Shown here piece by piece: positions 1 to 14,588 of a stretch of DNA of 14,588 bases. Each line of letters opens with the position of its first letter. Positions within the stretch are counted from its first letter, which is position 1. Origin of the DNA: a virus. A program made the translations under genes and the position numbers. The stretch is taken from the UHGV virus genome UHGV-1840666. One strand, given 5' to 3'. The notes beneath the pieces were generated by a model, which made no database searches, was not told the origin of the DNA, and was given only the letters and a program-made list of their open reading frames with translations.

Positions 1-65
1 ACGGTATTTCCCGCGTGGTGTATGACATCAGCGGCAAGCCACCAGCAACTATTGAGTGGGAATGA
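1..65 (+). CDS. guaA: 3-prime end of upstream host-like gene, resembling the GMP synthase (GuaA) C-terminus; partial, continues left of window
   Basis: Frame 3 translates to ...GISRVVYDISGKPPATIEWE then TGA at 63-65. The ...PPATIEWE ending matches my recollection of enterobacterial GuaA; not verified. Confidence 0.45.
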   Translation, partial: GISRVVYDISGKPPATIEWE

Positions 66-113
66 TTAATAGCTAACTCATAGCAAATCATTTCTATTCA
101 GACACTAACTCAA

Positions 114-143
114 CCTCTGTTTTTACAGAGGGTTTTTGTTTTT
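114..143 (+). terminator. Rho-independent terminator after the guaA-like gene
   Basis: Stem CCTCTG (114-119) / CAGAGG (126-131), loop TTTTTA, followed by GTTTTTGTTTTT. Confidence 0.6.
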
Positions 144-256
144 ATGTATTCATTTCTATTCACTCTACACCATATTTTTCGGCGGTACAGGTGACGGTAT
201 TACCTTAAAGGTATACTCTCATACCGTCATGAAAATGGTTTCTATACGGGTGAATT

Positions 257-1506
257 GTGCTTACCGATACAAAATTAAAAAACCTCAAGCCGCAGGACAA
301 ACTGTACAAGGTCTCCGATCGTGACGGGCTGTATGTAGCTGTGCTTACGTCAGGCACGGTCTCGTTTCGCTACGACTACCGTATCAACGGTCGCCGCGAA
401 ACGCTGGTAATCGGGCAGTATGGGCGTGACGGTATCAGCCTGGCAGAAGCGCGAGAAGAACTGATTGCTGCAAAGAAGCTGCTTAAAGCAGGCCAGTCAC
501 CGGCTGCGGCTAAACGTGACGGTATCAAAAAGATTCGTGGTGCCGAGACGTTTGCGGTACATACCGACAGTTATATGAAACACGTCATCCTGGCTGACAG
601 TACCCGCGCAATGAAACAGGCGGTGATCGACCGTGACATACTTCCGGTTCTTGGCAATAAAATGATGGCTGAAATTACCACATCGATGGTTCGTGATTTG
701 TGTGACCGGATTGTCGAACGCGGTGGCCGGGCAACAGCAGTGCAGGCCAGGGAGATCATCAGTAGCGTATACCGTCACGCCAATGACCGTGGTCATGGTT
801 TGTTTAATCCTGCGGCTGACATTAAACCTTCGTCTATCGCCATATTTAAACCAAGAGAGCGAACACTGACACCAGAAGAAATTGGCCTGTTCTTCCGCAC
901 GCTGGATGCCATTGGTGCTATGGCACTATGAAAATGGCTTTAAAGCTGGTGCTTATCACTATGGTTCGTAAAGGCGAATTCACCAACGCAACGTGGGATG
1001 AAATAGATTTTAAAAAATGGACATGGACCATTCCTTCAGACCGCATGAAGGGAAGCCGGGCGCACGTTATTTACCTGCCTAAACAGGCTCAGGATATATT
1101 GGTCGGATTGCAGATGTGCGCTGGTGGAAGTGAATATCTGGTTCCTGGTCGTTACAATTTCCGGAAGCCATTATCTAATGCCGCGCTGAACTCTCTGATC
1201 GACAGAACGGTGAAAATAATAAATGAAGATGGTGAGCATATTCAGGGCTTCACCGTACACGATATGCGCCGTACAGCCAGTACATTGTTGCATGAGGCTG
1301 GTTATCCTTCAGACTGGATTGAAAAGGCTCTGGCACATGAGCAGAAAGGTGTGCGCGCCGTATATAACAAAGCGGAATACGCCAGACAGCGCGCCTACAT
1401 GTTGCAGCAGTGGGCCGATATGATTGATTCCTGGATTGACGGGGAGCATACGGATCTGATTCCGTTCTCCCCGTCGAAGTTTGAGAAGTGGATGGCGGGG
1501 GAATAA
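257..1506 (+). CDS. int: Tyrosine recombinase, P4-type phage integrase (N-terminal DUF4102-like arm-binding region plus C-terminal catalytic domain); split into two ORFs (257-931, 928-1506) by a frameshift near 925-935
   Basis: N-terminal ORF (GTG start) has LTDTKLKNLKP...YRINGRRETLVIGQYG typical of P4-like integrases. C-terminal ORF has VLITMVRKGEF...HDMRRTASTLL...YNKAEYARQ (R/H-x-x-R and Tyr region). Combined about 415 aa. Frame change 2 to 1 is consistent with a 1-bp deletion. Confidence 0.85.
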
Positions 1507-1509
1507 CGT

Positions 1510-1704
1510 TTAATTATTCTGCTGATTTTCTTCCATCTCGGCTTCTGCTGCCAGTGATTCAATTTTATCTGTGAATATTGCTGACAGTGTTGCAAATTCA
1601 GCATCAGTGACAGCGGGAATTGGAACAAACCTGATCCCGCTGTGTGCAAGCATGTTTGCAGTTTCAAGGCATTTCCTTAAATCTGCTGGTGATGCCCTGT
1701 TCAT
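1510..1704 (-). CDS. Small acidic hypothetical protein (about 64 aa), last gene of the leftward operon
   Basis: ATG at 1704-1702 overlaps the methyltransferase stop (ATGA coupling). Product MNRASPADLRKCLETANMLAHSGIRF...EAEMEENQQNN. Taken from the C-terminal part of the 1510-1824 track ORF. Confidence 0.35.
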   Translation of the reverse strand: MNRASPADLRKCLETANMLAHSGIRFVPIPAVTDAEFATLSAIFTDKIESLAAEAEMEENQQNN

Positions 1705-2347
1705 GCTGCACGCTCCCGCCCCTGGTTGTCTGTTGGTGACAGCGGAGCATTGCTGAATGCATTTGTTAATCCGGCAATATACAACGCGTATCCAGGGTGT
1801 AGTTGCACTGCTGGGTCTTCGCACTGATTACCCCAAACATCGAAGCCATGAGACGTTTGGCGGGCGAACAGTTCAATGCGAGAAACATCGCCTAACAATT
1901 GCACAAGTTTTTCACGAACGACATCTGGTTTTCTTGAATGCTCAAGCCGCGGTGCGGTAAATGACTGAACGATACCTGCATTAATGCGCGGAGGTAGTTT
2001 TCCCTTTACCGCAAACAGGCAATCTTCACTGTTGGCGCGAGTCATGTGTCCCATCCCCATAACCAGTTTATCTGGTTGTCGACTACCACATTTTATCCAC
2101 GTGAAGCCCTTCATGGTCATCAGACGAAATCCCCAGGCTTCAACAACTTTTAGTGCTTCGAGTGGTTGTGTTGGCACCCACCACATGGCCAACAGACAGT
2201 TTTCATCGGCCAAATCCCACACAGGAAGGCGGCAGATATCCAGCACACTCATAACCGGATATTTAAAACCGGCACCGCGATTACCATCTGCGGCTTTGTC
2301 CCGGTATACCCAGGTGGATCTGCATAGATTAGCGTGTATTTTTTCAT
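1701..2347 (-). CDS. MT-A70 family (phage Dam-like) DNA N6-adenine methyltransferase; frameshifted inside the DPPW catalytic motif near 2310-2314
   Basis: N-terminus MKKYTLIYADPP (frame of ORF 2249-2473) is followed, after a -1 shift, by WVYRDKAADGNRGAGFKYPVMSVLDI... continuing into the 183-aa ORF, which ends ...FDVWGNQ. The observed CCACCTGGG would read DPPW if it were CCACCCTGG. Confidence 0.8.
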
Positions 2348-2480
2348 TGTTCTGCTCCCAGACTTCCTTTGGTAAAGGCTTGTATCAGCCTGTTTGCTGC
2401 CGCTTTCTGTGCTGCTACATTGGCAATAACTGATAGTTTTTCCTGGCTTGCTTTCGTGCAGATCCCAACCCAATTATCCA

Positions 2481-3445
2481 TTAGGAAAAAATTCTCTCTT
2501 TCTGCGAATCAGTATTTGCACATAATGTTTCAATCATTGAAATTATTTCTTTTATTGAGTGATTAACCATCATTTGCTGAACAGCATAGCCAAAAGCGTT
2601 AATCATCACTGCATGAAACTGGATATATTCTCTTTTGTATTCTGATTGCTTTGTACCATGGCGAATTGCTTCTAGTTGTGTAAGACATAACCATGATTCC
2701 CATACTGACTCGATGTTACCAATTTCTAGTTTTTTCCCATTATGAATACAAAATTTTGATGTTGAATCACTTAATGCTTTGAAACTCACCCACATGTTTG
2801 ACTTTGACGGAACAACGTTGTGCTCGAAGTCAGTGACTTCTGCAAAAGTGTCATGTTGCGACAGGAAAGACACCATTTCTTGGGCAACATCGTTTCGTCC
2901 GTCATACGCCATATTAATTGCTGCAGATGGTTTTGAAACATTATTATTAATGTCAGAAAAGAACTGCTGACGCGCTTCAAAGGAAGGTTATGCGTAAGCA
3001 TAAGAGGAATCATAATTGTTTCGCCATAATTACGGCAGAACTCAGCTAATCCTGCAGCACGATGCTGTCCATCAAATAATTTTATTTCTGCATCCATAGG
3101 AAATCTAGCTAAACCGACATTAGTATTTCCAATCTCATGGAACTCTATTTCTGAGTTACAATTTCCGACCAATGGTGGAACAATAAATGGTTCCTTTTTC
3201 TCGTAAGCGTTGACTAAATATTGATAAAACTTTTTTACCCTGGTTGGATTAATTTCACGTTGAGAACGTTCAAGGGTACTTCCCGTATTGTCGGTTGCCA
3301 ATACTCTCGATAGTGCTCTTGCTGGTACTGTCATCATAAGTATTACAGTGCTTCCCTGCGTTCCTCGTGATGCGGGAAATTCAAAGAAATAATCGCCTAC
3401 CTTGCTCATGATATTACCTTTTACATTATTGTTTTGATTATTCAT
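2481..3445 (-). CDS. DGQHR-domain protein (DndB-like, ParB/Srx-fold); two overlapping ORFs joined by a 1-bp frameshift near 2979-2981
   Basis: N-terminal ORF contains ...IKLFDGQHRAAGLAEF..., the signature DGQHR motif. The downstream frame reads through as ...FEARQQFFSDINNNVSKPSAAINMAYDGRND... to the stop at 2481. Start could be ATG 3445 or ATG 3409 (MSKVGDYFFEF). Confidence 0.7.
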
Positions 3446-3737
3446 AAACCACCCCGCAACATCCTATGCCGCTATAGTCGCCACGGCGAAGGCCGTTACC
3501 TTTTGTGATACATTGGTCCCTGCGAACCGCGATCCTTGCACGTTCAACATCACCAGAAGCAACATCCATACACTGAAGCCAAAGGTGAGCGGCAATGCGG
3601 AATTGCCCTTTTTTCTCTCTTTCAATCGCGCGTTTTTCGATCTCTATCGCCGCAGGAGTAACGGCGACAATCTTTGACGGACTGCGCATTGAAACCTTAT
3701 TCATGTGATATTTTTCAAGTCGGCTTAACTTTCTCAC
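3438..3737 (-). CDS. Hypothetical protein (about 99 aa)
   Basis: ORF with GTG start at 3737 preceded by AGAGAGGG (RBS-like). Stop overlaps the start of the DGQHR gene. No recognisable family. Confidence 0.45.
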   Translation of the reverse strand: MRKLSRLEKYHMNKVSMRSPSKIVAVTPAAIEIEKRAIEREKKGQFRIAAHLWLQCMDVASGDVERARIAVRRDQCITKGNGLRRGDYSGIGCCGVVYE

Positions 3738-3850
3738 TTAATCCAACCCTCTCTGAAAATTAATGCCAGCAGATAAAGCCATGCTGAAACAGAGGCCAGG
3801 AATAAGTACCATCCTGACCATTTGCTCCAGTGCCTTAGCAGCACACTCAT
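3734..3850 (-). CDS. Small hydrophobic peptide (38 aa), putative single-pass membrane protein
   Basis: ATG 3850-3848 to TGA 3736-3734, product MSVLLRHWSKWSGWYLFLASVSAWLYLLALIFREGWIK with a 19-residue hydrophobic core. Stop overlaps the GTG start of the downstream gene (GTGA). Weak RBS. Confidence 0.3.
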   Translation of the reverse strand: MSVLLRHWSKWSGWYLFLASVSAWLYLLALIFREGWIK

Positions 3851-3937
3851 GCAGCGTTGCTCACAGGACGATATACACGTTGCTGAACAGGAGGCTTTTT
3901 ACCCTGGAACTCTGCCGGGCTTGCTGCCTGACGTTCA

Positions 3938-4096
3938 TCAACTCCACAGCTCAACTTCGTCACGGTTCCATGCGCAGCGTTTGTCAGTGATATACCAGCG
4001 TTTAGGAAATTCACCTGCGCGCTCCATACGGTCGATAGTGCTCCATGACAGTGGCACCACCGCCAGGAGTTCCTTCTTACCTAATGCACCTTTCAT
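3938..4096 (-). CDS. AlpA/excisionase-family small DNA-binding regulator (52 aa)
   Basis: ATG 4096-4094 preceded by AGAGAGG. Product MKGALGKKELLAVVPLSWSTIDRMERAGEFPKRWYITDKRCAWNRDEVELWS matches the AlpA-family winged-HTH pattern (..LS.STI.R....G.FP......W...EV..W). Below the 60-aa track cutoff. Confidence 0.5.
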   Translation of the reverse strand: MKGALGKKELLAVVPLSWSTIDRMERAGEFPKRWYITDKRCAWNRDEVELWS

Positions 4097-4145
4097 AAAT
4101 ACCTCTCTTGGTTGCAGTGCGGCGCGCGTGGCGCCGCGGTGGTGG

Positions 4146-5063
4146 TTACATAGATGTTTCGTTTAATTCTTCCCGACGAACGCTGTAAACGTCGGTGGCT
4201 TTTGCCAGCAGTTCGTCATCATCTGAAAGTTTTTGTGCAATGTATTTGTAAGCCTTATCCAGTTCGGAGACAGTGCTGTAATTCATCGCTGCGCTGGTAA
4301 AGGCCATCAGCATTTCTTCTGGATCACGGCTATCCGCTTTACGCGTTTGCTCATCAGGCTTTTTCACTGTTTTAGCGTTGATCAGACTGTTCATGCTGGA
4401 TGCTGTGCCGTGCTTTGCCTGACTTCTTGGAGTTACGTCACGTTCAATAATGTCAGGTGAGTCGATATATTTACCTTCCATTTCCTCAGCTGTGGCTTGT
4501 TGACCAATCTCCGGCCATGCTTTACGTAATGCCTGTGCCTCTGCGCATTTTGCCAACTGCGCATAAGGCGCTTTTTCCACATGGCATTTGGTGCCGATGT
4601 GTCACGCCCCCCAGTTGCATAGTTCTCAATCCAGTATTCTTTGGCGCTAAACTCTACGATTTCCCCGCTTGCCCATTCGCTTGCTGACGGTGTACTTACA
4701 CCACTGAGGGAAGGTAACCTCCACGCCTGAAAGCGTTTGTGTTACATCTGGACCGAACTCAGGTTCATTAGCGCCTGCGTAATCGCCGGAACGGTAGGCC
4801 TGAATGCGATAAAGTCCAATGCCAGGCATGACCACGTCGCGCCATTCATTCTTTCCACTCTTCGAGTCTTTAACACTCATTGGTACCAGGTGTACCGGCT
4901 TAAGAAGAGGATCGAGTTGACGCGCCCGGCAGTAATCGACTGCCATCATTACCGATTCATCTTTTGCCCCAGGGTAAATACTGTTTTTCAGAGCGCTCCA
5001 TGTAACTTCATCGATTCCCCGAATAGCCAACACATCATTGGTGATTGCAATTTCGTTGCTCAT
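4146..5063 (-). CDS. recT: RecT-family single-strand annealing recombinase; disrupted by two homopolymer frameshifts (near 4663-4666 and 4572-4576)
   Basis: ATG 5063-5061 overlaps the exonuclease stop (ATGA). N-terminal ORF ...DYCRARQLDPLLKPVHLVPM...GIGLYRIQAYRSG; the middle segment reads in another frame (...EIVEFSAKEYWIENYATGGRDTSAPNAMWKK); C-terminal ORF (V)EKAPYAQLAKCAEAQALRKAW... Placed next to a RecE-like exonuclease. Confidence 0.8.
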
Positions 5064-5881
5064 ACGTACATATCCTGTTTGCGTGCCCACTCAGGGCGTT
5101 TAATAATTTCCACGCCGCCCCATTCATCGCTGATGCGGCATTCGTGATAGGTATTCAGATCCCGGCGGAACAGAGCGTGCCCGGCATCGACATCCGGCGC
5201 ATCCAGCCCGAACACGCGTACCGGATACCGACCACAATCAATGCTTTCGCTCACGGCAAGAAAGAAAAAACCATGCGGCTGACCAGTAATCCTCATTGCG
5301 CCTTCGCGGTACATTGCGTCCTGCACGTGGTAGCGGAATTCCTCGATGTGACGTGCAAAACGGTCCATATCTGCAACCTTTTTCACGTCGACGATCACGT
5401 TGTGCTCGTTCAGCCATTTGTCTGGACGAATTCGGCACAACTCACCCGTCTCTTCATCGTTCCAGTACATTGATGCTTCGCAGTAACCAGGTGCTTCCAG
5501 CATCCAGCGTGCCGCCGGGTGAGCCATTGCGCTATCACGCATCAGCTCCAGTTTCCGCCACTGCTCGGCATCAAGTACCGTAATCCCCATATCCGCTACA
5601 TCACGAAGAAATGCTTCTTCGTCAGCTTTACCTTGTTTCGTCCGACGATCGAACTTCGGTGAAACAATGAAGCGTTTGTCGAATTCTCCAGGCTCCAGAA
5701 GCAGACAGTGCAATGCGGTTCCCATATCCAGTGCAGACTTTTTCTCTTCGTCTTCTGGTGCTGCCTGAACCCATTTAAGAAGCGCCGGATTCTTGGCAAC
5801 CATGTCCAGTTGCGACTTACTCACGCCGTCACCGGCGTGGTAGTCTTCGTTGCTGATGTCGAAATAAATTCCCGGTTTCAT
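5060..5881 (-). CDS. RecE-like PD-(D/E)XK exonuclease (exodeoxyribonuclease VIII-like), partner of RecT
   Basis: Intact 273-aa ORF MKPGIYFDISNEDYHAGDG...RIRPDKW...VIVDVKKVADMD...; directly upstream of, and translationally coupled to, recT. Confidence 0.75.
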   Translation of the reverse strand: MKPGIYFDISNEDYHAGDGVSKSQLDMVAKNPALLKWVQAAPEDEEKKSALDMGTALHCLLLEPGEFDKRFIVSPKFDRRTKQGKADEEAFLRDVADMGITVLDAEQWRKLELMRDSAMAHPAARWMLEAPGYCEASMYWNDEETGELCRIRPDKWLNEHNVIVDVKKVADMDRFARHIEEFRYHVQDAMYREGAMRITGQPHGFFFLAVSESIDCGRYPVRVFGLDAPDVDAGHALFRRDLNTYHECRISDEWGGVEIIKRPEWARKQDMYV

Positions 5882-6177
5882 GCCGCTTCCCTCTGCCCAT
5901 CAAGCTGATCCGCCAGATCCCAGCGCGCTATAATTGCCATTGCCTCGCGCCGGTAGGAATCCATCAGTTCTTCGAACTCAGGGCTGTCTTTAGCAGCCTC
6001 CAGCACTTCCTGACGAACGCCTTTGCCTGTTACAACGTCGAAAGTTGAGGACAGTTGATGAAGTCGGATGCTCTCAATCAGTTCAACTTGTCGGTCATAT
6101 AGCTGTTCTGACAGGCGGTAGTCCTTGTCGAATGCCAGCATGATTTTTTGAAGATTTTTCTGCTGATTAACGTTCAT
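5878..6177 (-). CDS. Hypothetical phage protein (about 99 aa)
   Basis: ORF with ATG at 6177 preceded by GGGAGGG (6190-6184); the track's earlier start at 6192 lacks an RBS. Stop overlaps the exonuclease ATG. Confidence 0.55.
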   Translation of the reverse strand: MNVNQQKNLQKIMLAFDKDYRLSEQLYDRQVELIESIRLHQLSSTFDVVTGKGVRQEVLEAAKDSPEFEELMDSYRREAMAIIARWDLADQLDGQREAA

Positions 6178-6179
6178 TA

Positions 6180-6332
6180 TCAGCCCTCCCATATCTCGTT
6201 ATCGTTGGCCACATCGCGAGCTTCTTTGCTGACGAAAGCCCACTTAATGCCTTCCTGTAAGGTGCGGAACTTCCAGCTCATGAATCCGCATGCAGTAACG
6301 CAGTACCAACCGTTGATGATTTTCCACTGCAT
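6180..6332 (-). CDS. Small hypothetical protein (50 aa), first gene of the leftward early operon
   Basis: ATG 6332-6330 just downstream of the leftward promoter/operator region, product MQWKIINGWYCVTACGFMSWKFRTLQEGIKWAFVSKEARDVANDNEIWEG; stop 3 nt before the next ATG. Confidence 0.35.
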   Translation of the reverse strand: MQWKIINGWYCVTACGFMSWKFRTLQEGIKWAFVSKEARDVANDNEIWEG

Positions 6333-6351
6333 AACTTGTTACCTCGGTCTG

Positions 6352-6428
6352 TTACCGTTGAGGTAATAATTATGCGTATTTGGTTTGATGTCAATAGATA
6401 TGAGTTAAAAAAATTACCCATAAGGTAA
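6352..6428 (-). promoter_or_regulatory. Leftward early (PL-like) promoter with two flanking operators
   Basis: Palindromes TTACCgttgaGGTAA (6352-6366) and TTACCcataaGGTAA (6414-6428) flank a perfect -35 TTGACA on the minus strand (6394-6389); AT-rich -10 region is ambiguous. An extra half-site TTACC lies at 6339-6343. Confidence 0.5.
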
Positions 6429-6440
6429 TCTTGTTGGCAA

Positions 6441-6463
6441 TAAAAAAGCCGCCATGAGGCGGC
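6441..6463 (-). terminator. Rho-independent terminator downstream of the repressor gene
   Basis: GCCGCC (6448-6453) / GGCGGC (6458-6463) stem with ATGA loop; on the minus strand the stem is followed by TTTTTT (complement of the A-run 6442-6447). Confidence 0.6.
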
Positions 6464-6485
6464 TTACTTACTGAAAACTATAGTT

Positions 6486-7069
6486 TTATTGTTTGCTTCT
6501 TTCGTTCTGGCTGATGACAAATTCAATGTAACTTTCGATCTTTGCCTTCTCTGTTTCGGGTAACAATGCGTAGCGCGAGCGGTCATAGTTGATAGTCGCA
6601 GGGTCGTGCGGGTGAATCAGTAATTCATAGCCGTGACGCCCGAATGCGGATGCAACATTCTCCAGGGTGGAAATGGAAACGCTGACTTCATTGTTTAACA
6701 GGCGGCTGATTGTCACCTGGCGACGCCGGATGCGCGGTGTAGTTTTCCCTGCGTTGAAAGGTCGCGGCTTTCGCTCATCCAGCGTTCCAGGTTGTGAGCC
6801 GCCAGCTGACCAATGTCGCTTGGGCCGACAGGCTGAAACCCCTCCTGAGAAAGCGAGCGATCGATATCAAGCCAGTTACGGGGTTTATTGGCGGCAGCTT
6901 CAATTTTTCGCGCAACCTGGTCGCCGATAACCTTCTTGCCAAGAGCCCAGCGGTTTACCAGATTTGCCTGAGTTCCAAGTTTTTCTGCCATCCGCGTCTG
7001 AACACCATTGAATTCACGGTCGATCAAGTCGTTGAGATTTTGCCTGCGGACGTCCTGGATACTTTTCAT
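6486..7069 (-). CDS. Phage immunity repressor with two tandem XRE-type HTH domains and no S24 peptidase domain; split by a 1-bp frameshift near 6714-6720
   Basis: N-terminal ORF ...GVQTRMAEKLGTQANLVNRWALGKKVIGDQVARKIEAAANKPRNWLD (HTH 1). After the shift the sequence reads ...LSTQGKLHRASGVAR-VTISRLLNNEVSVSISTLENVASAFG... (HTH 2). Sits between the two operator clusters, divergent from the Cro-like gene. Confidence 0.8.
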
Positions 7070-7124
7070 TTTCTGGAAAATCGCCTCATATATGAATCAG
7101 TAGATGATTCAATTTAAAGCAATA

Positions 7125-7187
7125 TTACCCAACAGGTAAATGCACCTCATAGGTAACTATCCTTGATTTTTGTTACCTTATGGGTGA
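7125..7187. promoter_or_regulatory. Tripartite operator region (OR-like) between the repressor and cro-like genes
   Basis: TTACCcaacaGGTAA (7125-7139), GCACCtcataGGTAA (7142-7156, imperfect), TTACCttatgGGTGA (7173-7187, imperfect); candidate -35 TTGATT at 7163-7168. Confidence 0.5.
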
Positions 7188-7223
7188 ATATTTATTATCT
7201 GAAATAAATATCAGGCAATAGCT

Positions 7224-7454
7224 ATGAGCGATAACGGACATTTCGATTTCAAAAAGCACTGGCTTGCACTTACTCCGGATGAGCGTGAAGCCTTCGCACA
7301 GGAAGCCGGAACGACGAGTCACTATATCCAGACTCACTTAACAGGTAAGCGCAAAATGCCAGGTAAAGTATTGATGAATGGGCTTTTTAAAGCCTGTAAA
7401 ACAAGACAATGGCTGCGCTCAAAAGCAGAACTGGCATACTTCTTCTACTCATGA
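7224..7454 (+). CDS. Cro/YdaS-like small HTH regulator (76 aa)
   Basis: First rightward gene after the operator region; ...TPDEREAFAQEAGTTSHYIQTHLTGKRKMPGKVLMNG... is HTH-like; followed by a terminator. Confidence 0.6.
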   Translation: MSDNGHFDFKKHWLALTPDEREAFAQEAGTTSHYIQTHLTGKRKMPGKVLMNGLFKACKTRQWLRSKAELAYFFYS

Positions 7455-7476
7455 TATCCAGCTACAACCCTCTGTA

Positions 7477-7498
7477 GACCGCCACCCGGCGGTCTTTT
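7477..7498 (+). terminator. Rho-independent terminator after the cro-like gene (tR1-like position)
   Basis: GACCGCC (7477-7483) / GGCGGTC (7488-7494) stem, ACCC loop, then TTTT. Confidence 0.6.
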
Positions 7499-7602
7499 CA
7501 TATCTATTCGTACCTCAAAGGTAATAAAAAACCAAATCTGGTTGATCAAATTTTCCAATTGTGCAAAATATCCAATATCAATAACAAAAAGAGGCGGAAA
7601 AA

Positions 7603-7815
7603 TTGAAGATAGTAACCAGAATGGAGGCCGCAAAAGCCGGGTTAAATCGCTATTTCACAGGAAAGCGGTGCCGTCACGGCCATCTCTCTGAAAGGTATGT
7701 TCTGAACGGAACATGTGTTGAATGTGCAATGAATAGCGCCAACCGCCATCGTAATGAATTTGCTTGTGCACTAAAGAGTGCAAGAGGGGAAACCTATGGC
7801 AAGCAGCTGGATTAA
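7603..7815 (+). CDS. Small Cys/His-rich hypothetical protein at the cII position (about 70 aa)
   Basis: TTG start with AGAGG RBS 8 nt upstream; product has C-x-H-G-H ... C-x-x-C spacing (KRCRHGHLSERYVLNGTCVECAM), suggesting a zinc ribbon. Function unknown. Confidence 0.45.
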   Translation: MKIVTRMEAAKAGLNRYFTGKRCRHGHLSERYVLNGTCVECAMNSANRHRNEFACALKSARGETYGKQLD

Positions 7816-8619
7816 GGTTGAAGTTATCACTCCTGATAAACCTGAAATTTTTCAGATAGCAGAAATTCTGGGTATTGATCCAGATGCTGTTCTTGGAAAG
7901 CTGGTTCGTATATGGGCATGGGCTGACCAGCAAACAATAGACGGTAACGCTGGCAGCGTTACAAAAGGAGTACTTGATAGACTCGCTTTTATTACAGGAT
8001 TTGCTGACGCCCTCATTAGCGTCGGATGGCTTGCTTATCATGACGGCAAACTAATTCTTCCAAACTTTGAGCGACACAATGGAGAATCATCGAAAAAACG
8101 TGCACTTACGAATAGAAGAGTGGCAGAGCATCGAAAACGAGTAACGCAAAAATAACGCCAACAGCGTTACAAAAGGAGTTACCAGAGGAAGAGGAAGATA
8201 TATATAAAACCCCACACATAGCGCACGTGCGCGAGGGTGCTCCGACCAGTGAAGCGAACGGTATGCCGTTGCAGGTGGCTGAACCTGAATTTCTGGATGG
8301 CCTGAGTGAACCCATCGGGAAATTTCCGATGACCGATGGCCGGCATCCGTCGCCGGATTTTCGACGGCGTGCTGCGCTGTGGGGAACGGCCCTGCCGGAA
8401 CCGGAATTTACACCTGCTGAACTTGCTGCATTCCGGGATTACTGGATGGCTGAGGGCAAAGTGTTCACGCAGGTTCAGTGGGAACAAAAATTCGCCAGGC
8501 ACGTAAATCATATCAGGGGAAAATCAAAAAACGCCGGGAAAAGCGATGAGCTTGACTGGAATAACACTGACTGGATAGAAGGGGTGTGGGATGAAATCAA
8601 CTCCAGAACTTCTCAATGA
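7796..8619 (+). CDS. Replication initiator: replisome-organizer N-terminal domain fused to a DnaT-like C-terminal domain; frameshift near 8134-8140
   Basis: ATG 7796 with AGAGGGGA RBS. N-part MASSWIKVEVITPDKPEIFQIAEILGID...VGWLAYHDGKL. After a -1 shift the frame reads NAKITPTALQKELPEEEEDIYK... and continues ...IGKFPMTDGRHPSPDFRRRAALWGTALPEPEFTPAELAAFRDYWMAEGKVFTQVQWEQKFARHV, closely resembling the E. coli DnaT C-terminus as recalled. Confidence 0.7.
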
Positions 8620-9366
8620 GTACGATCGCTTACGTGAGCATGGTGTTGCTGTGCATGAAGAGCGGCGTGACAGCAATGGCAAAAAGGAGCATGTCGCTAG
8701 AATTTTCAATGAACTATTTGTCCAGTTACAGGCTGCATTTCCCGCAAGCGTTTCGACCATAAGGGAGCAGAACAAACTTAATGAATTCCGTAAGCAATGG
8801 ATGCTTGCGTTTCTGGAGAATGGGATCACTACAATGGAACAGGTTAACGCTGGTATGCGCCACGCCCGCGCCAGTGAGTCTCCGTTCTGGCCGTCGCCAG
8901 GGCAATTCATCAAGTGGTGTAAAGACAGCAAGATGGTTCTTGGCGTCACCATTGACGATGTGATGGCAGAGTTTCACCGGTACAGCAAGGAAAAAAGTTT
9001 ATATCCTGGTGGTCCCGAAAGATTCCCGTGGCGGCACCCGGTTATGTACTGGGTCGTATGTGATACCCGCCGTGCAATGTATCAGCGCCAGCTTAGCGAG
9101 ATTGAGTTGAGAAACACGCGCGCAGGCTGCTCGATGATTGGGCGAAAAAGGTGGCTTCAGGACAGCAGATACCCGATCCGGTGATCAGCATACAGGCAAA
9201 GCCAGAACCCATGAGTACGCCTCCGGACACAGGGAGAGACGTTTACCATCCACCAGGGCGAAGTTTCGGGTGCATGCCTAACGCCGCCACCCTTGGGGGA
9301 ATAACACCGGCGCAGTGGCTGATGGAGGAATACAGGCGGGGAAAGGCGGCAGGATTTATCAAGTAA
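8591..9366 (+). CDS. Lambda P-like replication protein (DnaB helicase loader); frameshift near 9108-9116
   Basis: ...QWMLAFLENGITTMEQVNAGMRHARASESPFWPSPGQFIKWCKD... matches the conserved core of lambda P as recalled. The C-terminus continues in the adjacent frame (...RRLLDDWAKKVASGQQIPDPV...). Confidence 0.75.
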
Positions 9367-9371
9367 TACCA

Positions 9372-9391
9372 GCGCGATAGCGCATTTTTTT
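9372..9391 (+). terminator. Possible weak terminator after the P-like gene
   Basis: GCGC-gata-GCGC hairpin (9372-9383) followed by A then T7 (9385-9391); short stem. Confidence 0.3.
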
Positions 9392-9403
9392 ACGTCTCGA
9401 TAA

Positions 9404-9480
9404 TTACCTGTGAGGTAATAAAATATTCTAAACTCTATTGATTTCGTGTCTTATGTGGTTTTTAATTACCTCAGGGGTAA
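9404..9480 (+). promoter_or_regulatory. Second repressor-controlled promoter module driving the rightward accessory operon
   Basis: TTACCtgtgaGGTAA (9404-9418), -35 TTGATT (9438-9443), 17-bp spacer, -10 TTTAAT (9461-9466), TTACCtcaggGGTAA (9466-9480). Spacing is identical to the leftward module at 6352-6428. Confidence 0.5.
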
Positions 9481-9483
9481 ATT

Positions 9484-9827
9484 ATGAGAAAACAGATACA
9501 GGCTCTTGGTCGACTCAAAACAGGCAGATGAACAAAACAGAATCTGCGTATTGCCAGCACCTTGAGCTGCGTAAACGTGCAGGGGAAATCGCCTGGTATC
9601 GATTTGAGGGTATCAAGCTGCGATTAGCTGACAACACGTTCTATACGCCCGATTTTGCTGTGATGCTCGCCACCGGCGAGATGGAACTGCACGAAGTGAA
9701 AGGTTTCTGGACCGACGACGCCAGGGTGAAAACCAAAGTCGCCGCAGATCAGTATCCGTTCCGAATCATCGGGGTAACGGTTAAACCAAAGAAAGCAGGT
9801 GGTGGCTGGAACATCGAAGAGTTCTGA
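9484..9827 (+). CDS. Hypothetical phage protein with a GFW-DDA-V motif weakly reminiscent of RusA-type resolvases; N-terminus uncertain
   Basis: Main ORF from ATG 9528 (MNKTESAYCQHLELRKRAGEIAWYRFEGIKLRLADNTFYTPDF...GFWTDDARVKTKV...). A 15-codon ORF with a good RBS starts at 9484 and ends ATGA-overlapping 9528; this is either a coupled leader peptide or the real start displaced by a 1-bp deletion in the A-run at 9488-9492. Confidence 0.5.
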
Positions 9828-9888
9828 ATCGACGATCTTTTTAGTTATCAATGTAATCAATAAGTTATGTGGATAAGCGAGGGTAAAG

Positions 9889-10326
9889 ATGGAAAGTAAT
9901 ATCAAAGGGTTAGTTGCCGCCGGGCATGAGATGGCTTCGGAACTGAAAGCAGAATGTGGTGCCGTTGATATGCGCAGTGTGGCAAAGCTGATCAGCTATT
10001 TGGCAACGCAACTGGAAGTGCAACTGGTGCGTGCTAATGCGCTGGCTGCGGAGAATGCGCTGGCTCGTAAAGCAGTTCAGGCATTTTGCGATGTTGTTGG
10101 CGACAGCACCGAGGTTATCTGCGAGGAGATTGGGCGAGATGGCGTTCTGGTTATTTTGGAGGCAATGAAGGCAACAGGAAATATGCCAGCCACCGATGCT
10201 TTCCTGTCTGAAGTGCGGGCGCAGGGGGTAGAGATGATGCGCGAACATCCATCAATCAAACTTTGTTCTTTGACGCACATATGTGATGAGTTAGCCGCCC
10301 AGCTTCGCAAAGGAGGCAGCCAGTGA
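9889..10326 (+). CDS. Hypothetical phage protein (145 aa)
   Basis: ATG 9889 with GAGGGTAAAG RBS; intact ORF; stop overlaps the next start. Confidence 0.55.
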   Translation: MESNIKGLVAAGHEMASELKAECGAVDMRSVAKLISYLATQLEVQLVRANALAAENALARKAVQAFCDVVGDSTEVICEEIGRDGVLVILEAMKATGNMPATDAFLSEVRAQGVEMMREHPSIKLCSLTHICDELAAQLRKGGSQ

Positions 10327-10817
10327 GCGAAATTAATTACCAGGCATTGCGTGAGGCGGCAGAGAAAGCAACGTGGGGAGACTGGGACTCATATAAACCA
10401 CACCGTGGCGCACGTGGTTATGAGGTCCGACTAAGTAGTCAGGCCATTGCGCAACACGTTCTGAAAAACAACGCTGAATTTATTGCTGCCTTTAATCCAA
10501 AGGTTGCTTTGGCACTACTGGATGAACGGGAAAAAAACCAGCAATACATCAAACTCCGCGACCAGGAGAACGAGGATATTGCGCTAACGGTAGGGAAGCT
10601 GCGCGTTGAGCTTGAAGCAGAAAAACAGATGGCAAAGGTTCTATTTATGGAAAATGCTCGGCTTAAGTCAGGCATAGCCGGTCTGATACACCTCGGTATT
10701 CGATATGCAGATGTTGAGGTCATGAAAATTGCTGGAGATGCCCAGCTTTCTACTCCATGCACTGACAGCATCATAAACAGCATTGCAACAGGCATTCGCA
10801 TCAACGGAGGTGAGTAG
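10323..10817 (+). CDS. Ea22-like protein (lambda Ea22 family)
   Basis: MSEINYQALREAAEKA... and ...LLDEREKNQQYIKLRDQENEDIALTVGKLRVELEAEK... resemble lambda Ea22 as recalled; GTG start overlapping the upstream stop. Confidence 0.7.
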   Translation: MSEINYQALREAAEKATWGDWDSYKPHRGARGYEVRLSSQAIAQHVLKNNAEFIAAFNPKVALALLDEREKNQQYIKLRDQENEDIALTVGKLRVELEAEKQMAKVLFMENARLKSGIAGLIHLGIRYADVEVMKIAGDAQLSTPCTDSIINSIATGIRINGGE

Positions 10818-10993
10818 TGCGTGTGGCATGTATCGGCTTGTTACCGTACCCGACTCGTTTTTGGGCTTCTGCGCTAATTGCAAAGCCACATGTCCTGATG
10901 GCTGACAACATCATCCCGGCACCAAAGCGCCGCCATACCGGTATTGCAGCGGCACGACGAGCAGCAAAGAGACGCAGGAGAGCAAAGCGATGA
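10817..10993 (+). CDS. Possible small protein with Arg-rich C-terminus (58 aa)
   Basis: GTG 10817 overlapping the Ea22-like stop; ...HTGIAAARRAAKRRRRAKR; stop overlaps the next ATG. Could instead be a frameshifted extension of the Ea22-like gene. Confidence 0.25.
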   Translation: MRVACIGLLPYPTRFWASALIAKPHVLMADNIIPAPKRRHTGIAAARRAAKRRRRAKR

Positions 10994-11167
10994 AAAACCG
11001 TAAGGCAAAACGACTTTTTTTTACAGCGACCTGTGCGTGTGGTGGAGCTGGTTATTAGCAACCATAAGATAGCGGTACTCCATCCATTTGGTCAGGTGGC
11101 TTTTGCCGCAAAGCGTAAGCCTACTGCGTCACAGAACAGGCGGAAGAAAGGGTACGCTGTAAGATGA
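10990..11167 (+). CDS. Small basic hypothetical protein, paralog A (MKNRKAK...); frameshifted in a T8 run (11015-11022)
   Basis: ATG 10990. Read with T7 instead of T8 the ORF gives MKNRKAKRLFLQRPVRVVELVISNHKIAVLHPFGQVAFAAKRKPTASQNRRKKGYAVR, ending ATGA-overlapped with paralog B and resembling it at both ends. Confidence 0.3.
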
Positions 11168-11352
11168 AAAACCGTAAAGCAAAGATTCTGTTAGTTCGTA
11201 GAAACGCTCCTGGCGTCTGGCAGTGGGTGAGACTCAGCAACCGACGGATGGGGTTGATGAAATATTACGGGATGATGGATTGTGGTTTTTGCAAAAAGCC
11301 CAGCGCGGCGCAAAACCGCTGGAAAAACCACTTGCGCACTAAAGGAGAGTGA
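11164..11352 (+). CDS. Small basic hypothetical protein, paralog B (62 aa)
   Basis: Track ORF MKNRKAKILLVRRNAPGVWQWVRLSNRRMGLMKYYGMMDCGFCKKPSAAQNRWKNHLRTKGE; the first 20 nt nearly repeat the start of paralog A. Confidence 0.4.
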   Translation: MKNRKAKILLVRRNAPGVWQWVRLSNRRMGLMKYYGMMDCGFCKKPSAAQNRWKNHLRTKGE

Positions 11353-11353
11353 T

Positions 11354-11867
11354 ATGGCGTTAACACACCGCGAACTCTGTCAGATTGCGTATAAGTTCCT
11401 TAAGCGCAACGGGTTCAAGGTTTGTTTCATGACCGCTTTATAGCTGTAACCAGTACCGGAGAACAGCCAGATGCTATGGGATTCAGAAATTCAGCATCAT
11501 GCCTGATAGAGGCGAAGTGTTCTCGTGCTGACTTGTTGGCAGATAGAAAAAAGCGTTTTCGTAAAAATCCATCTCTTGGAATGGGCGACTGGCGATTCTT
11601 TATTAGTGAGCGGGAATTATTTCAGTTGAGGATTTACCACCTGGCTGGGGATTACTTCACGTTGTTAACGGAAGAGTACGGAAAGTACATGGGTGGCCCA
11701 AGGGTAATTGCTGTTGGGGTAATCCTGACGATAAGCCATTTACTGGAAATAAGCAGGTTGAATGCGATTACATGTTATCTGCATTAAGGCGCATGGAGTT
11801 GAGAGGGCACCTTAATGAAATATATGACGGTGTAATTGTTAATAAGAAAGAAGGAAACGCGGCATGA
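11354..11867 (+). CDS. PD-(D/E)XK-fold nuclease-like protein (Hjc/MmcB/VRR-NUC-like); two frameshifts (near 11425-11440 and 11600-11620)
   Basis: ATG 11354 with AAGGAG RBS. MALTHRELCQIAYKFLKRNGFKVCF...IAVTSTGEQPDAMGFRNSASCLIEAKCSRADL shows E...PD...E-x-K spacing. The frame returns to ...NPDDKPFTGNKQVECDYMLSALRRMELRGHLNEIYDGVIVNKKEGNAA with the stop overlapping the next ATG. Confidence 0.5.
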
Positions 11868-12642
11868 TCACTATTACCAATAAGAAACAGTATCCCAGCG
11901 AGCAATATCTTAATGAGCTGATCACCAACATAGAGTTTGCTGCAAGGGCACCAGTTGAAGTCGTGAGAGCAATGGCAGCAGAGCTACAGAAGCGGCGCGA
12001 AGCTGATAGCGCAGAACCAGTTGCTTATATTTTCAAACATCCGGCCGGGAAATTATTCTGGGCTTTAACGGATGAAAGTAATAAAGAGCAAGCGGACGTT
12101 ATTCCTGTTTATGCCGCCCCTCCAGTGCCAGTAGTACCTGAAGAAAAACCAATGCCTAACCCTCTTAAAATGTACGCGGTCGATGCTGTTGCCGCTATTG
12201 CAGAGGTGAGAGGCTGGAACGCTGCCGCGCCGCCATGCTTCAGGCCGAACCTGTAAGTAATAGTGATGAGTTACCGCTGGACTATCTGCAAGGACACAAA
12301 GACGGCCTGGAGTGGGCTGCACAATTGGCAGAAGCCAATCATCCGCAAACAGGTGACTGGTTGTACGACGACCCAATCGATCTTGCCAGGGCGATTCGCA
12401 AAGGTCCTGATATGCCTACTGTTCAGGCTGGCAACTATCCGGTAACTCCGGATGGTTGGATAAGCTGTAGTGAGCGAATGCCCGCTCAAGATGATTGGAT
12501 TTTAATTTATTCAAAGCACGGCGAGTATATGGCAGGACAGGTACAAGGGGAATACGTGGAGTTGAGCGACGGCACTTTATCGTGGTTAGGGAACGCCTTG
12601 TACTGGATGCCTCTACCGGAACCGCCGCAGGAGGTTAATTGA
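11864..12642 (+). CDS. DUF551-domain phage protein; frameshift near 12215-12235
   Basis: C-terminal part ...DGWISCSERMPAQDDWILIYSKHGEYMAGQVQGEYVELSDGTLSWLGNALYWMPLPEPP is a typical DUF551 signature; the N-terminal ORF from ATG 11864 (AAGGAA RBS) runs into it after a -1 shift. Confidence 0.65.
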
Positions 12643-12926
12643 TGGTCTCCTTCGCGAAATATACGATTATTGACTGGATAGCATTCATTCAGGTTTTGCT
12701 CATCTGGTTTTATATGGCTTACAGGAGTGGACAGTGGATTGTCAGTGTAGCCTGTAGCAATGGATGGCGTTGGTGGAACCGAAAGAATAAAAAAGCGCTG
12801 GCCTTGGCTTCGTTTTACGAAGCATTCAATCTTAACAGTCTTCAGCCTGGTTCTGTCGTTGTAGTCACCACTCAAAGCGGCATGACGATACAAATTCACA
12901 AGCCAAAGGAGGAAGGTCGTGGCTAA
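12642..12926 (+). CDS. Hypothetical protein with N-terminal transmembrane helix (94 aa)
   Basis: ATG 12642 overlapping the upstream stop (TGATG), AGGAGG RBS 9 nt upstream; hydrophobic segment IIDWIAFIQVLLIWFYMAY. Confidence 0.45.
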   Translation: MVSFAKYTIIDWIAFIQVLLIWFYMAYRSGQWIVSVACSNGWRWWNRKNKKALALASFYEAFNLNSLQPGSVVVVTTQSGMTIQIHKPKEEGRG

Positions 12927-13203
12927 CCTGCAACTTGCCGTTAAAGGTGAATACTTCGATGCCATGATTCGCGGAGAGAAAACGGAAGAGTATCGCCTGT
13001 GTAATGACTACTGGAATAAGCGAATTATGTTCCGCGAGTATGACCGCCTGATTATCACAAAGGGATATCCGAAGCGCGACGATTCCAGCCGCAGAATTGA
13101 CGTCCCGTATGACGGATATGAAATCAAGACAATCACACATCCGCACTTCGGCGATAAACCGGTAAAGGTGTTCGCGATAAAGGTGAATATCAGCAATGAA
13201 TAA
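12919..13203 (+). CDS. ASCH-domain-like protein (94 aa)
   Basis: GTG 12919 with GGAGGAAGG RBS; ...AVKGEYFDAMIRGEKTEEYR...YDRLIITKGY...KVFAIKV fits the ASCH/PUA-like pattern. Confidence 0.5.
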   Translation: MANLQLAVKGEYFDAMIRGEKTEEYRLCNDYWNKRIMFREYDRLIITKGYPKRDDSSRRIDVPYDGYEIKTITHPHFGDKPVKVFAIKVNISNE

Positions 13204-13237
13204 CAATCCTCGCACTCGCGGGGATTTCTTTTATCTG

Positions 13238-13262
13238 AACTCGCTACGGCGAGTTTTGTTTT
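13238..13262 (+). terminator. Rho-independent terminator after the ASCH-like gene
   Basis: AACTCGC (13238-13244) / GCGAGTT (13249-13255) stem, TACG loop, then TTTTGTTTT. Confidence 0.5.
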
Positions 13263-13275
13263 ATGGAGATGATAA

Positions 13276-13443
13276 ATGCACTTCCGGGTGACAGGTGAAT
13301 GGAATGGAGAACCATTCAACAGAGTTATCGAAGCGGAGAACATCAACGACTGCTATGACCACTGGATGCTGTGGGCGCAGATAGCGCATGCAGACGTAAC
13401 CAATATTCGAATTGAAGAACTGAAAGAACACCATGCCGCCTGA
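13276..13443 (+). CDS. Small hypothetical protein (55 aa), possibly the lambda orf55 equivalent
   Basis: ATG 13276 with GGAG RBS; MHFRVTGEWNGEPFNRVIEAENINDCYDHWMLWAQIAHADVTNIRIEELKEHHAA. Below the track cutoff; the orf55 link is from memory of lambda gene order only. Confidence 0.4.
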   Translation: MHFRVTGEWNGEPFNRVIEAENINDCYDHWMLWAQIAHADVTNIRIEELKEHHAA

Positions 13444-13456
13444 TGGCGGTTTTTTA
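13435..13456 (+). terminator. Rho-independent terminator overlapping the stop of the 55-aa ORF
   Basis: GCCGCC (13435-13440) / GGCGGT (13445-13450) stem, TGAT loop, then a T-run (13450-13455). Confidence 0.5.
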
Positions 13457-13469
13457 TTGGAGACAAGAA

Positions 13470-13814
13470 ATGTCAGATTTGGCTATGAAGGTTTTGAAAT
13501 GGCAATCGACTGGCGATGTCGGCATCAGTAGCGCAACTCTTGCCTCAATCGCATGTGGACTGAAAAAGAATATCTATGGTCATAGCTTCGGTGCTCCACA
13601 TGACGCAGCCGATTTCCGGCGATGCGTTGCACTTGTTGAGCAGATTCCAGAAATCAGAGATTCATTCGACAAGGTTGCAAAGCTCGTTCCGGCATTCAAA
13701 GGCATCCTCAACGAATGGGATTCCCTCGTTGCTCTGTTGAAGTCTGAAATGAAGATACACGGAAACAAAGCACCAGAGACTTACAGAAGAATTAGCGAAC
13801 TACGCAAGGACTAA
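13470..13814 (+). CDS. Hypothetical protein (114 aa) upstream of xis
   Basis: ATG 13470 with GGAG 7 nt upstream (the track start at 13443 lies inside the terminator loop); MSDLAMKVLKWQSTGDVGISSATLASIACGLKK... Confidence 0.5.
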   Translation: MSDLAMKVLKWQSTGDVGISSATLASIACGLKKNIYGHSFGAPHDAADFRRCVALVEQIPEIRDSFDKVAKLVPAFKGILNEWDSLVALLKSEMKIHGNKAPETYRRISELRKD

Positions 13815-13929
13815 CCATGGAATCACACAGCCTCAAACCCAATGAGGCCTGTTCATTTCTCAAGATATCCAGACCTACCATTGCCGCATCAATGCGGCTT
13901 TTCTTGCGTGTAATTGCGGAGACTTTGCG

Positions 13930-14148
13930 ATGTACTTGACACTTCAGGAGTGGAACGCACGCCAGCGACGCCCAAGAAGCCTTGAAACAGTTCGTCGATG
14001 GATACGCGAGTGCAGGATATTCCCTCCTCCGGTTAAGGATGGAAGAGAGTATCTGTTCCACGAATCAGCGGTAAAGGTTGACTTAAATCGACCAGTAACA
14101 GGTAGCCTTTTGAAGAGGATCAGAAATGGGAAGAAGGCGAAGTCATGA
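13930..14148 (+). CDS. xis: Excisionase Xis (lambda type)
   Basis: 72-aa product MYLTLQEWNARQRRPRSLETVRRWIRECRIFPPPVKDGREYLFHESAVKVDLNRPVTG.LLKRIRNGKKAKS is near-identical to lambda Xis as recalled; overlaps the int start. Confidence 0.9.
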   Translation: MYLTLQEWNARQRRPRSLETVRRWIRECRIFPPPVKDGREYLFHESAVKVDLNRPVTGSLLKRIRNGKKAKS

Positions 14149-14588
14149 GCGCCGGGATTTACCCCCTAATCTTTATATAAGAAACAATGGATATTACTGC
14201 TATAGGGACCCAAGGACGGGTAAAGAGTTTGGATTAGGCCGAGACAGGAGGATAGCAATCACTGAAGCAATACAGGCCAACATTGAGTTATTTTCAGGAC
14301 ACAAACACAAGCCTCTGACAGCGAGAATCAACAGTGATAATTCTGTTACGTTACATTCATGGCTTGATCGCTACGAAAAAATCCTCGCCAACAGAGGAAT
14401 CAAGCAGAAGACACTCATAAATTACATGAGCAAAATTAAAGCAATAAGGAGGGGTCTGCCTGATGCTCCACTTGAAGACATCACCACAAAAGAAATTGCG
14501 GCAATGCTCAATGGATACATAGACGAGGGCAAGGCGGCGTCAGCAAGTTAATCAGATCAACACTGAGCGATGCATTCCGAGGGAGGCA
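14126..14588 (+). CDS. int: Lambda-type integrase Int, N-terminal part (continues beyond window); 1-bp frameshift near 14545-14548
   Basis: MGRRRSHERRDLPPNLYIRNNGYYCYRDPRTGKEFGLGRDRRIAITEAIQANIELFSGHKHKPLTARINSD... matches the lambda Int N-terminus as recalled. The ORF stops at ...GKAASAS while the +1 frame continues KLIRSTLSDAF..., which is the known lambda continuation. Confidence 0.9.

Follow-up and report, generated by a model that had tools for sequence, protein, structure and literature searches.

Introduction

Temperate podoviruses of the Uetakevirus group (phiV10, TL-2011b, vB_EcoP_ZX5 and the epsilon15 group) integrate at guaA with a P4-type integrase, and the 17-bp att core reported for phiV10, epsilon15 and vB_EcoP_ZX5 is ATTGAGTGGGAATGATT (PMC9782041). 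Their genes follow the order int, DUF1382, MT-A70, DGQHR, PerC, AlpA-like, RecT, exonuclease, repressor, cro-like, DnaT-like, P, DUF1064, Ea22, DUF551 and ASCH, after which a small hypothetical gene leads into the genes for the terminase subunits, portal, capsid and tail. A different kind of prophage occupies the lambda site, between ybhC/gal and bio, as in DETEC-S589 and ExPEC XM. In these prophages attL and ybhC lie just beyond int, and the upstream genes are lambdoid N, cIII, kil, a recombinase and anti-RecBCD. Features of both kinds come together in the N39/N47 hybrid prophage (also IMG/VR UViG_2744054675_000008), in which a phiV10-type early block ending in Ea22/DUF551/ASCH has been spliced into the left arm of a lambdoid prophage and is followed by a lambdoid hypothetical-xis-int end, so that one prophage has a pair of integrase genes and a pair of immunity/replication sets. 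Temperate phages have been documented to undergo exchange with resident prophages (PMC3945230, PMC2669165), and prophage-prophage interactions have been described (PMC2669165).

Here we analyze a stretch of 14,588 nucleotides (the window) that a first-pass annotation had presented as one element with two different tyrosine recombinase modules. Our results do not establish such an element; they resolve the window into parts of two ordinary prophages, both of common and well-described E. coli types, and the join between them was probably made by the assembler rather than by the cell.

The left part of the window matches a Uetakevirus prophage at guaA

Positions 1-13190 can be identified from their sequence as attL plus the early region of a Uetakevirus prophage (phiV10/epsilon15 type) at guaA, sharing the att core, the P4-type integrase and the gene order of this group at 96.8-99.8% DNA identity. 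The window opens with the 3' end of host guaA (1-65, plus strand; stop codon at 63-65), which agrees with the end of guaA in K-12 and in APEC E19035. The attL core lies at 51-67 and occurs just once in the window; phage homology begins at 51, and homology to the empty site of K-12 stops at 67. A phage-borne hairpin with a T-run follows (114-137, plus strand) that resembles guaA's own terminator, being identical to the K-12 sequence downstream of guaA at 22 of 24 positions, and may likewise act as a terminator. The integrase occupies 257-1506 on the plus strand, next to the guaA end as the first-pass annotation had placed it. It is divided into two ORFs (257-931 and 928-1506) with PF13356, PF22022 and PF00589, the first being the arm-binding and the last the catalytic domain in Pfam, and is collinear with the intact 416-aa integrase of a related prophage (L001).

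The next genes lie on the minus strand. DUF1382 (1510-1704) was mapped from the L001 annotation, while the MT-A70 methyltransferase (1701-2347) and the DGQHR/DndB-like protein (2344-3409), each broken by 1-bp deletion (at 2312, 2508 and 2974 across the two genes), were assigned from the L001 annotation and from Pfam on the source contig. A PerC-family regulator (3438-3689; L001 annotation) is followed by an AlpA-family HTH protein (3847-4096; PF05930 and L001 annotation), which is likely the directionality factor (excisionase) for the P4-type integrase. The recombination module consists of RecT/Bet (4146-5063; broken by indels at 4566 and 4672) and a PD-(D/E)XK exonuclease (5060-5881). An HTH repressor (6486-7069; broken by a deletion at 6718), of a kind reported to be identical among phiV10-group phages (PMC9782041), is divergent from a plus-strand cro-like gene (7224-7454); both assignments come from L001 annotation and mapping. 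The replication module, also on the plus strand, comprises DnaT-like (7796-8619), P (8591-9366) and DUF1064 (9484-9827), with 1-bp deletions at 8152, 9105 and 9524, respectively. Variable accessory genes fill 9889-12425 on the same strand: a hypothetical gene, an Ea22-like gene (10323-10817), small ORFs and, from 11864, the 5' part of DUF551. Genes of this accessory region are swapped among phiV10-type prophages, lambdoid prophages and ~95-kb plasmids.

The gene content between the two integrases fits the immunity, replication and recombination genes of the first-pass annotation: it comprises repressor, cro-like, DnaT-like, P, RecT, exonuclease and accessory genes, with no lysis or virion genes. 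The podovirus packaging/virion module (terminase, portal, capsid and tailspike) and attR are absent from the window, and the lack of structural genes is due solely to the departure of the contig from the phiV10-type path at 13191. Positions 3-10328 are 99.8% identical to prophage L001, which runs on from ASCH through a hypothetical gene to terminase, portal and capsid. Identity of the early region to phiV10, TL-2011b and ZX5 is 96.8-97.7%, and plaque-forming phages are 97-98% identical to it.

The right end of the window matches the left end of lambda-site prophages

In sequence, positions 13191-14588 correspond to the normal left end of lambda-site prophages, cut by the contig end. All genes are on the plus strand: two hypothetical genes of 55 aa (13276-13443) and 114 aa (13470-13814), xis (13930-14148; PF07825, E = 8e-41) and the N-terminal part of int (14126-14588; PF09003 and PF02899). 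With lambda proteins from the PDB as reference, 70 of 72 Xis residues and 139 of the first 140 Int residues are identical to those of lambda, and Pfam recognizes the arm-binding and core-binding domains of lambda Int and a lambda Exc-family Xis. As previously annotated, this xis-int pair points outward at the right edge. The contig stops at about Int residue 154, without covering the catalytic domain (RHR-Y), and no copy of the lambda att core lies within the window.

The match to lambda-site prophages extends leftward beyond the lambdoid-specific sequence. Positions 12426-14588 are 98-99.3% identical to the left end of the DETEC-S589 and ExPEC XM prophages, and 12426-14581 is 99.3% identical to the ASCH-hypothetical-hypothetical-xis-int-ybhC end of lambda-site prophages. 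The window differs from these prophages on both sides of this segment, as its upstream genes are phiV10-type rather than lambdoid and its sequence ends inside int, without reaching attL and ybhC. The part of the window specific to lambdoid prophages amounts to its last 1.4 kb only.

The two parts meet in a module common to both prophage types

The switch from one prophage type to the other falls within a plus-strand module made up of the 3' part of DUF551 (11864-12642; frameshifted by deletion of a C at 12221), DUF4752 (12642-12926) and ASCH (12919-13203). This module is near-identical in both phage types over at least 765 bp (12426-13190), which defines the crossover interval. In this interval the window differs by two substitutions from the CM2 prophage of guaA type and by five from the DETEC-S589 prophage at the lambda site, and the two references part from each other exactly at 13190/13191. 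The CM2 prophage matches 12011-13190 at 99.4% and differs from 13191 onward. From this point typical Uetakevirus genomes continue toward the terminase genes, whereas the window is lambdoid.

Among the 10 matches listed, the exact ASCH allele of the window occurred in lambdoid contexts only, which suggested a crossover to the left of 12919. We rejected this placement, as a module with 99.4% identity is also present in CM2 and related guaA-type prophages; therefore, the crossover cannot be placed more narrowly than 12426-13190. A look-up of the 135-aa DUF551 ORF of the window found it on the source contig only, but this uniqueness is uninformative because the ORF is a fragment created by the erroneous C deletion at 12221.

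The window lies at the end of a metagenome contig of very low coverage

Exact-protein look-up showed that the window corresponds to the last 14,588 bases of a metagenome contig, ENA ERZ504554 NODE_374_length_24114_cov_2.450494, which has a k-mer coverage of 2.45x. The right edge of the window (14588) is the physical end of this contig, and upstream of the window the contig carries guaA, guaB and xseA. One-base homopolymer deletions occur along the contig at ~1.3 per kb, and guaB, guaA and xseA are among the genes that they hit. Against its closest relative the window has 12 one-base indels and only five substitutions in 10.3 kb, and the 4.6 kb of xseA-guaB-guaA on the same contig hold eight further homopolymer deletions. 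A Logan contig from run DRR042503 has two of these deletions in common and two others of its own. The left integrase is split by the loss of one base at 921; in the right integrase, loss of one base at 14543 leads to a stop at 14549-14551. Because homopolymer deletions also break the host genes guaB, guaA and xseA on this contig, the apparently split integrases are the product of read errors, and the same holds for the frameshifts in about ten other genes. Exact-pattern scans of genome contigs and viral contigs for the int frameshift specific to the window gave no match. Indel density showed no detectable difference between the two halves, in numbers too small to discriminate. A literature search for the accessions of the run and the assembly gave nothing, and the sequencing platform is therefore inferred from the error pattern only.

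The join does not recur in complete genomes

In a survey of 5,426 complete E. coli genomes, the guaA prophage was present in 569 (~10%) and the lambda-type end in 169 (~3%). The join of the two was found in none of the 5,426, the 569 guaA lysogens included. Some genomes carry both prophages at separate sites, among them M21816 and Br_54_kylling, in which the two copies of the module lie on the same strand as direct repeats. The same P gene is carried by 80 IMG/VR loci that we compared; 61 of them run on into a small terminase of phiV10 type, and lambda xis-int is reached in none.

Origin of the join

The first-pass annotation had offered a recombinant mosaic as one interpretation of the window. 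As a description of the sequence this fits, with a phiV10-type left half, a shared module and a lambda-type int end; the existence of the mosaic in a cell is doubtful, given a 2.45x contig and a join that appears in no complete genome. We infer that the join is probably an assembly chimera. The sample would have contained two prophages, a Uetakevirus temperate podovirus integrated at the 3' end of guaA by its own P4-type integrase and a lambda-type prophage, and the DUF551-DUF4752-ASCH module of both families (at least 765 bp) would have been collapsed into one repeat during assembly. Working with error-prone reads at ~2.5x k-mer coverage, a de Bruijn-graph assembler could then have crossed the repeat from one prophage to the other and halted 1.4 kb past it. 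That the join instead arose in vivo, by homologous recombination within the module, is a possibility we take seriously but regard as rather unlikely. At least 765 bp of at least 99% identity would suffice for RecA- or RecT-mediated exchange, the phiV10-type phage has a RecT/exonuclease pair of its own, and natural hybrids through the same module are known (N39/N47, locus L007, and locus L083). By one route, a circular lambda-type genome would insert Campbell-style into the guaA prophage to give a nested double prophage in the order guaA-attL-phiV10 early-R-hyp-hyp-xis-int-attP-lambdoid genome-R-phiV10 late-attR; by the other, a hybrid phage would gain a lambda xis-int-attP segment between ASCH and the terminase genes. 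Either product, if real, would truly have two integrase/excisionase systems, each complete and different from the other, and could be an intermediate on the path to N39-type hybrids. The sole evidence for such a recombinant, however, is a single contig at 2.45x whose sequence stops 1.4 kb beyond the repeat, and the join is missing from all 5,426 complete genomes and all 80 IMG/VR relatives. Moreover, the known hybrids differ from the window at their left boundary, in their integrase and in their att site: N39/N47 lies at tRNA-Thr/proA without a guaA attL, its P4-type int is truncated, internal to the lambdoid prophage and fused to a truncated recombinase gene, and its terminal integrase and xis, unlike those of the window, are not those of lambda.

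E. coli prophages are known to rearrange with one another, and the residence of both prophages in some strains would allow a deletion or inversion between the guaA and lambda-site prophages of one chromosome. We judge this very improbable. In M21816 and Br_54_kylling the same-strand orientation of the repeats means that the arrangement of the window would be a deletion-type junction, with the loss of ~1.9 Mb that includes the terminus and many essential genes, and a chromosome with such a deletion is not viable; an inversion would need an earlier rearrangement that flipped one of the sites. The suggestion of a satellite-like element is harder still to credit. A satellite or decayed cryptic element at guaA that kept no more than integrase, immunity and replication genes, inactivated by frameshifts, could be read from the P4-type integrase, the AlpA-family gene, the lack of structural genes in the window and the many split ORFs, yet the early region is 97-99.8% identical to complete, virion-forming phages and prophages of 39-45 kb (PMC9782041), the upper value being to prophages with the full virion module, and the ORFs are split by the same type of homopolymer deletion that affects guaB, guaA and xseA. 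Pfam listings of the window and of the source contig contained no satellite hallmark genes or domains. Tandem prophages, which had also been proposed, were rejected: the window has one guaA-type core and no lambda core, neither a second att core nor a hybrid att site lies between the parts, and the switch falls inside a homologous gene module.

The biological weight of the window is small: its halves belong to two common prophage types, and mosaicism via shared accessory modules is already established. If real, the join would be a further case in which a Uetakevirus and a lambdoid phage recombined, of modest interest for the origin of N39-like hybrids. The window also serves as a caution that promiscuous phage modules of ~1 kb (Ea22, DUF551, DUF4752 and ASCH) can join unrelated prophages in low-coverage metagenome contigs, where chimeric contigs can look like composite or satellite-like elements and homopolymer errors like gene decay. 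A point against a chimera is that the co-resident prophages of M21816 have only 273 bp in common, at 96% identity, so a repeat long enough to mislead an assembler is not present in every such strain.

Two known components on one contig

Exact protein matches to two ORFs specific to sequence errors place the window in ENA metagenome assembly ERZ504554, where it spans positions 9527-24114 of contig NODE_374_length_24114_cov_2.450494, and its right edge is the contig end. It opens with the guaA 3' end (1-65, stop codon 63-65), followed at 257-1506 by a P4-type tyrosine integrase with arm-binding (PF13356), central (PF22022) and catalytic (PF00589) domains. At the other edge, a lambda-family xis (13930-14148; PF07825, E = 8e-41) and the start of a lambda-type int (from 14126; PF09003 arm-binding domain) are transcribed out of the window. 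These are nearly identical to lambda Xis (70/72 residues) and lambda Int (139/140 over residues 1-140). Immunity, replication, recombination and accessory genes fill the interval between the two integrases, and no lysis or virion genes were found there in the window. The first-pass annotation had described just this arrangement of two integrases flanking a region free of lysis and structural genes, and it is correct as a description of a contig. Its proposal that both recombinase modules belong to a single element was not supported; instead, two known components are joined on one contig.

The left 13 kb is a Uetakevirus prophage

Phage homology starts at 51 and K-12 empty-site homology stops at 67. 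The att core at 51-67, ATTGAGTGGGAATGATT, is the attachment core used at the guaA 3' end by phiV10, epsilon15 and vB_EcoP_ZX5 (PMC9782041), and no second copy was found within the window. From the att start to 10328, the sequence is 99.8% identical to the guaA prophage of strain APEC E19035, which continues past ASCH into small and large terminase, portal, major capsid, epsilon15-type capsid staple and tail genes. The early regions of TL-2011b, phiV10 and ZX5 are 96.8-97.7% identical to the window, and guaA together with this P4-type integrase is present in 569 of 5,426 complete E. coli genomes. On the strength of the att core, the identity to full-virion prophage and phages, and this frequency, the left part is an ordinary left half of a Uetakevirus prophage and no satellite. 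It shares the att core, integrase and synteny of guaA-integrating Uetakeviruses and differs from them in that the virion module is absent from it in the source contig. The satellite-like reading offered earlier is thereby set aside; the features expected of a tandem prophage, also suggested, were sought and not found.

A hairpin with a T-run just inside attL (114-137) is identical at 22/24 positions to K-12 sequence downstream of guaA and, because of this resemblance, the prophage seems to replace both the last codons of guaA and its terminator. In the early-left operon (1701-3409, minus strand), an MT-A70 methyltransferase lies beside a DGQHR/DndB-like protein, a putative pair that could serve DNA modification or anti-defence. 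The host flank xseA-guaB-guaA (source contig 4962-9589) is 97.3% identical to APEC E19035, with 117 substitutions in 4.6 kb, and the adjoining prophage (3-10328) differs from that of APEC E19035 by 5 substitutions in 10.3 kb. A diverged flank beside a near-identical prophage suggests that the phage spread horizontally, and recently, across divergent hosts.

The right end matches prophages at the lambda site

At the classical lambda site of DETEC-S589 lies a lambdoid prophage whose left end matches positions 12426-14581 with 99.3% identity, and the left end of the lambda-site prophage of ExPEC XM is 98.2% identical to the window from 12918. Both prophages have the order Ea22, DUF551, DUF4752, ASCH, two hypothetical genes, xis and int, then the ybhC/gal side. 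The right part of the window carries the sequence features of the lambda Int/Xis (integrase/excisionase) module, but the contig stops before its catalytic domain and att site are reached.

An accessory module is common to both phage families. The guaA-type prophage of CM2 matches 12011-13190 at 99.4%, with two substitutions after 12093, and leaves the path of the window at 13191 for its own hypothetical gene and terminase; the lambdoid reference has five substitutions over 12426-13190. Precedents thus exist in phiV10-type prophages for everything up to 13190 and in lambda-site prophages for everything from 12426, so that the crossover falls somewhere within at least 765 bp of near-identical sequence. 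Judged by these alignments, the lambdoid-specific part is only 13191-14588. Promiscuous variable genes occupy 10328-12011, with counterparts of 98-99% identity in guaA-type prophages, on ~95 kb plasmids and in a P22-like prophage at sbcB. The block at 10510-12245 (Ea22-like, small ORFs, start of DUF551) recurs at ~98% identity on many ~95 kb E. coli plasmids as well as in guaA-type prophages and the P22-like prophage at sbcB, and is a module common to very different mobile elements.

The join is probably an assembly chimera

A link between phiV10-type replication genes and lambda xis-int is absent from the 5,426 complete E. coli genomes; a genome with one would have topped the ranking by coverage. 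Likewise, none of 80 IMG/VR loci with the same P gene reaches lambda xis-int, and 61 of them run on into a phiV10-type terminase. The guaA-type and lambda-type prophages occur at frequencies of 10.5% and 3.1%, so both together are expected in ~0.3% of genomes, and they are co-resident at separate sites in some, such as M21816 and Br_54_kylling. We consider it probable that the join is an assembly chimera, in which the assembler would have walked through the collapsed repeat from one prophage into the other. K-mer coverage of 2.45x would make such a walk-through easy, since rival branches often go uncovered at that depth, and the contig stops 1.4 kb after the repeat.

A circular lambda-type genome or segment may instead have recombined homologously into the guaA prophage, making the join genuine. 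Recombination of temperate phages with resident prophages is well documented (PMC3945230, PMC2669165), and a natural hybrid lineage exists (N39, N47 and one IMG/VR isolate contig). However, there are no joins in 569 finished guaA lysogens, compared with ~3% co-residence among such lysogens, a value that would be higher if the metagenome holds several strains; on this comparison, we regard a genuine recombinant as possible but rather unlikely, and chimeric assembly as the better account. All other readings together are very improbable. Even a genuine join would add another case to the modular mosaicism known among phages, and neither component is new.

M21816 and Br_54_kylling carry both copies of the shared module on one strand, so the arrangement in the window would be a deletion-type junction, at a cost of ~1.9 Mb with the replication terminus among the lost sequence. 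No viable chromosome could therefore have arisen by simple rearrangement between resident prophages, which leaves the two accounts given above.

The hybrid of N39, N47 and the isolate contig (UViG_2744054675_000008) places a phiV10-type early block inside the left arm of a lambdoid prophage at tRNA-Thr/proA (in N39, positions 4800-16800 of locus L007 from NZ_CM165893.1). The block spans a truncated P4-type int, repressor, DnaT-like, P, Ea22, DUF551 and ASCH genes; beyond ASCH follow a hypothetical gene, a xis-like gene and an integrase. It is a real element in which the immunity module, the replication module and the integrase gene are each present twice over.

Frameshifts are sequencing artefacts

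Over 3-10328, the window differs from its closest relative, the APEC E19035 prophage, by 5 substitutions and 12 one-base indels, nearly all of the latter a G or C dropped from short runs. The host genes xseA-guaB-guaA on the same contig have lost single bases from homopolymers at 8 places within 4.6 kb. The ratio of indels to substitutions, above 2, together with damage to core biosynthetic genes, points to consensus error at very low depth rather than gene decay. Flow-based or uncorrected long reads would give errors of this kind. An independent Logan assembly of run DRR042503 has the deletions at 921 and 2312, plus two others, and the two shared deletions indicate that it very probably derives from the same reads. 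The deletion at 921 splits the P4-type integrase, and one at 14543 gives the lambda-type integrase a premature stop; MT-A70, DGQHR, RecT, repressor, DnaT-like, P, DUF1064 and DUF551 are also split. Given errors at very low depth, all of these genes, both integrases included, should be read as intact: the frameshifts are artefacts.

An AlpA-family gene is truncated relative to APEC E19035 by three substitutions and a 1-bp insertion clustered at 3942-3948, which, unlike the other differences, is no simple homopolymer deletion. At the contig tip (14580-14588), there are apparently two extra G relative to lambda-type references, one of whose alignments ends at 14581, and this mismatch is probably read-end noise.
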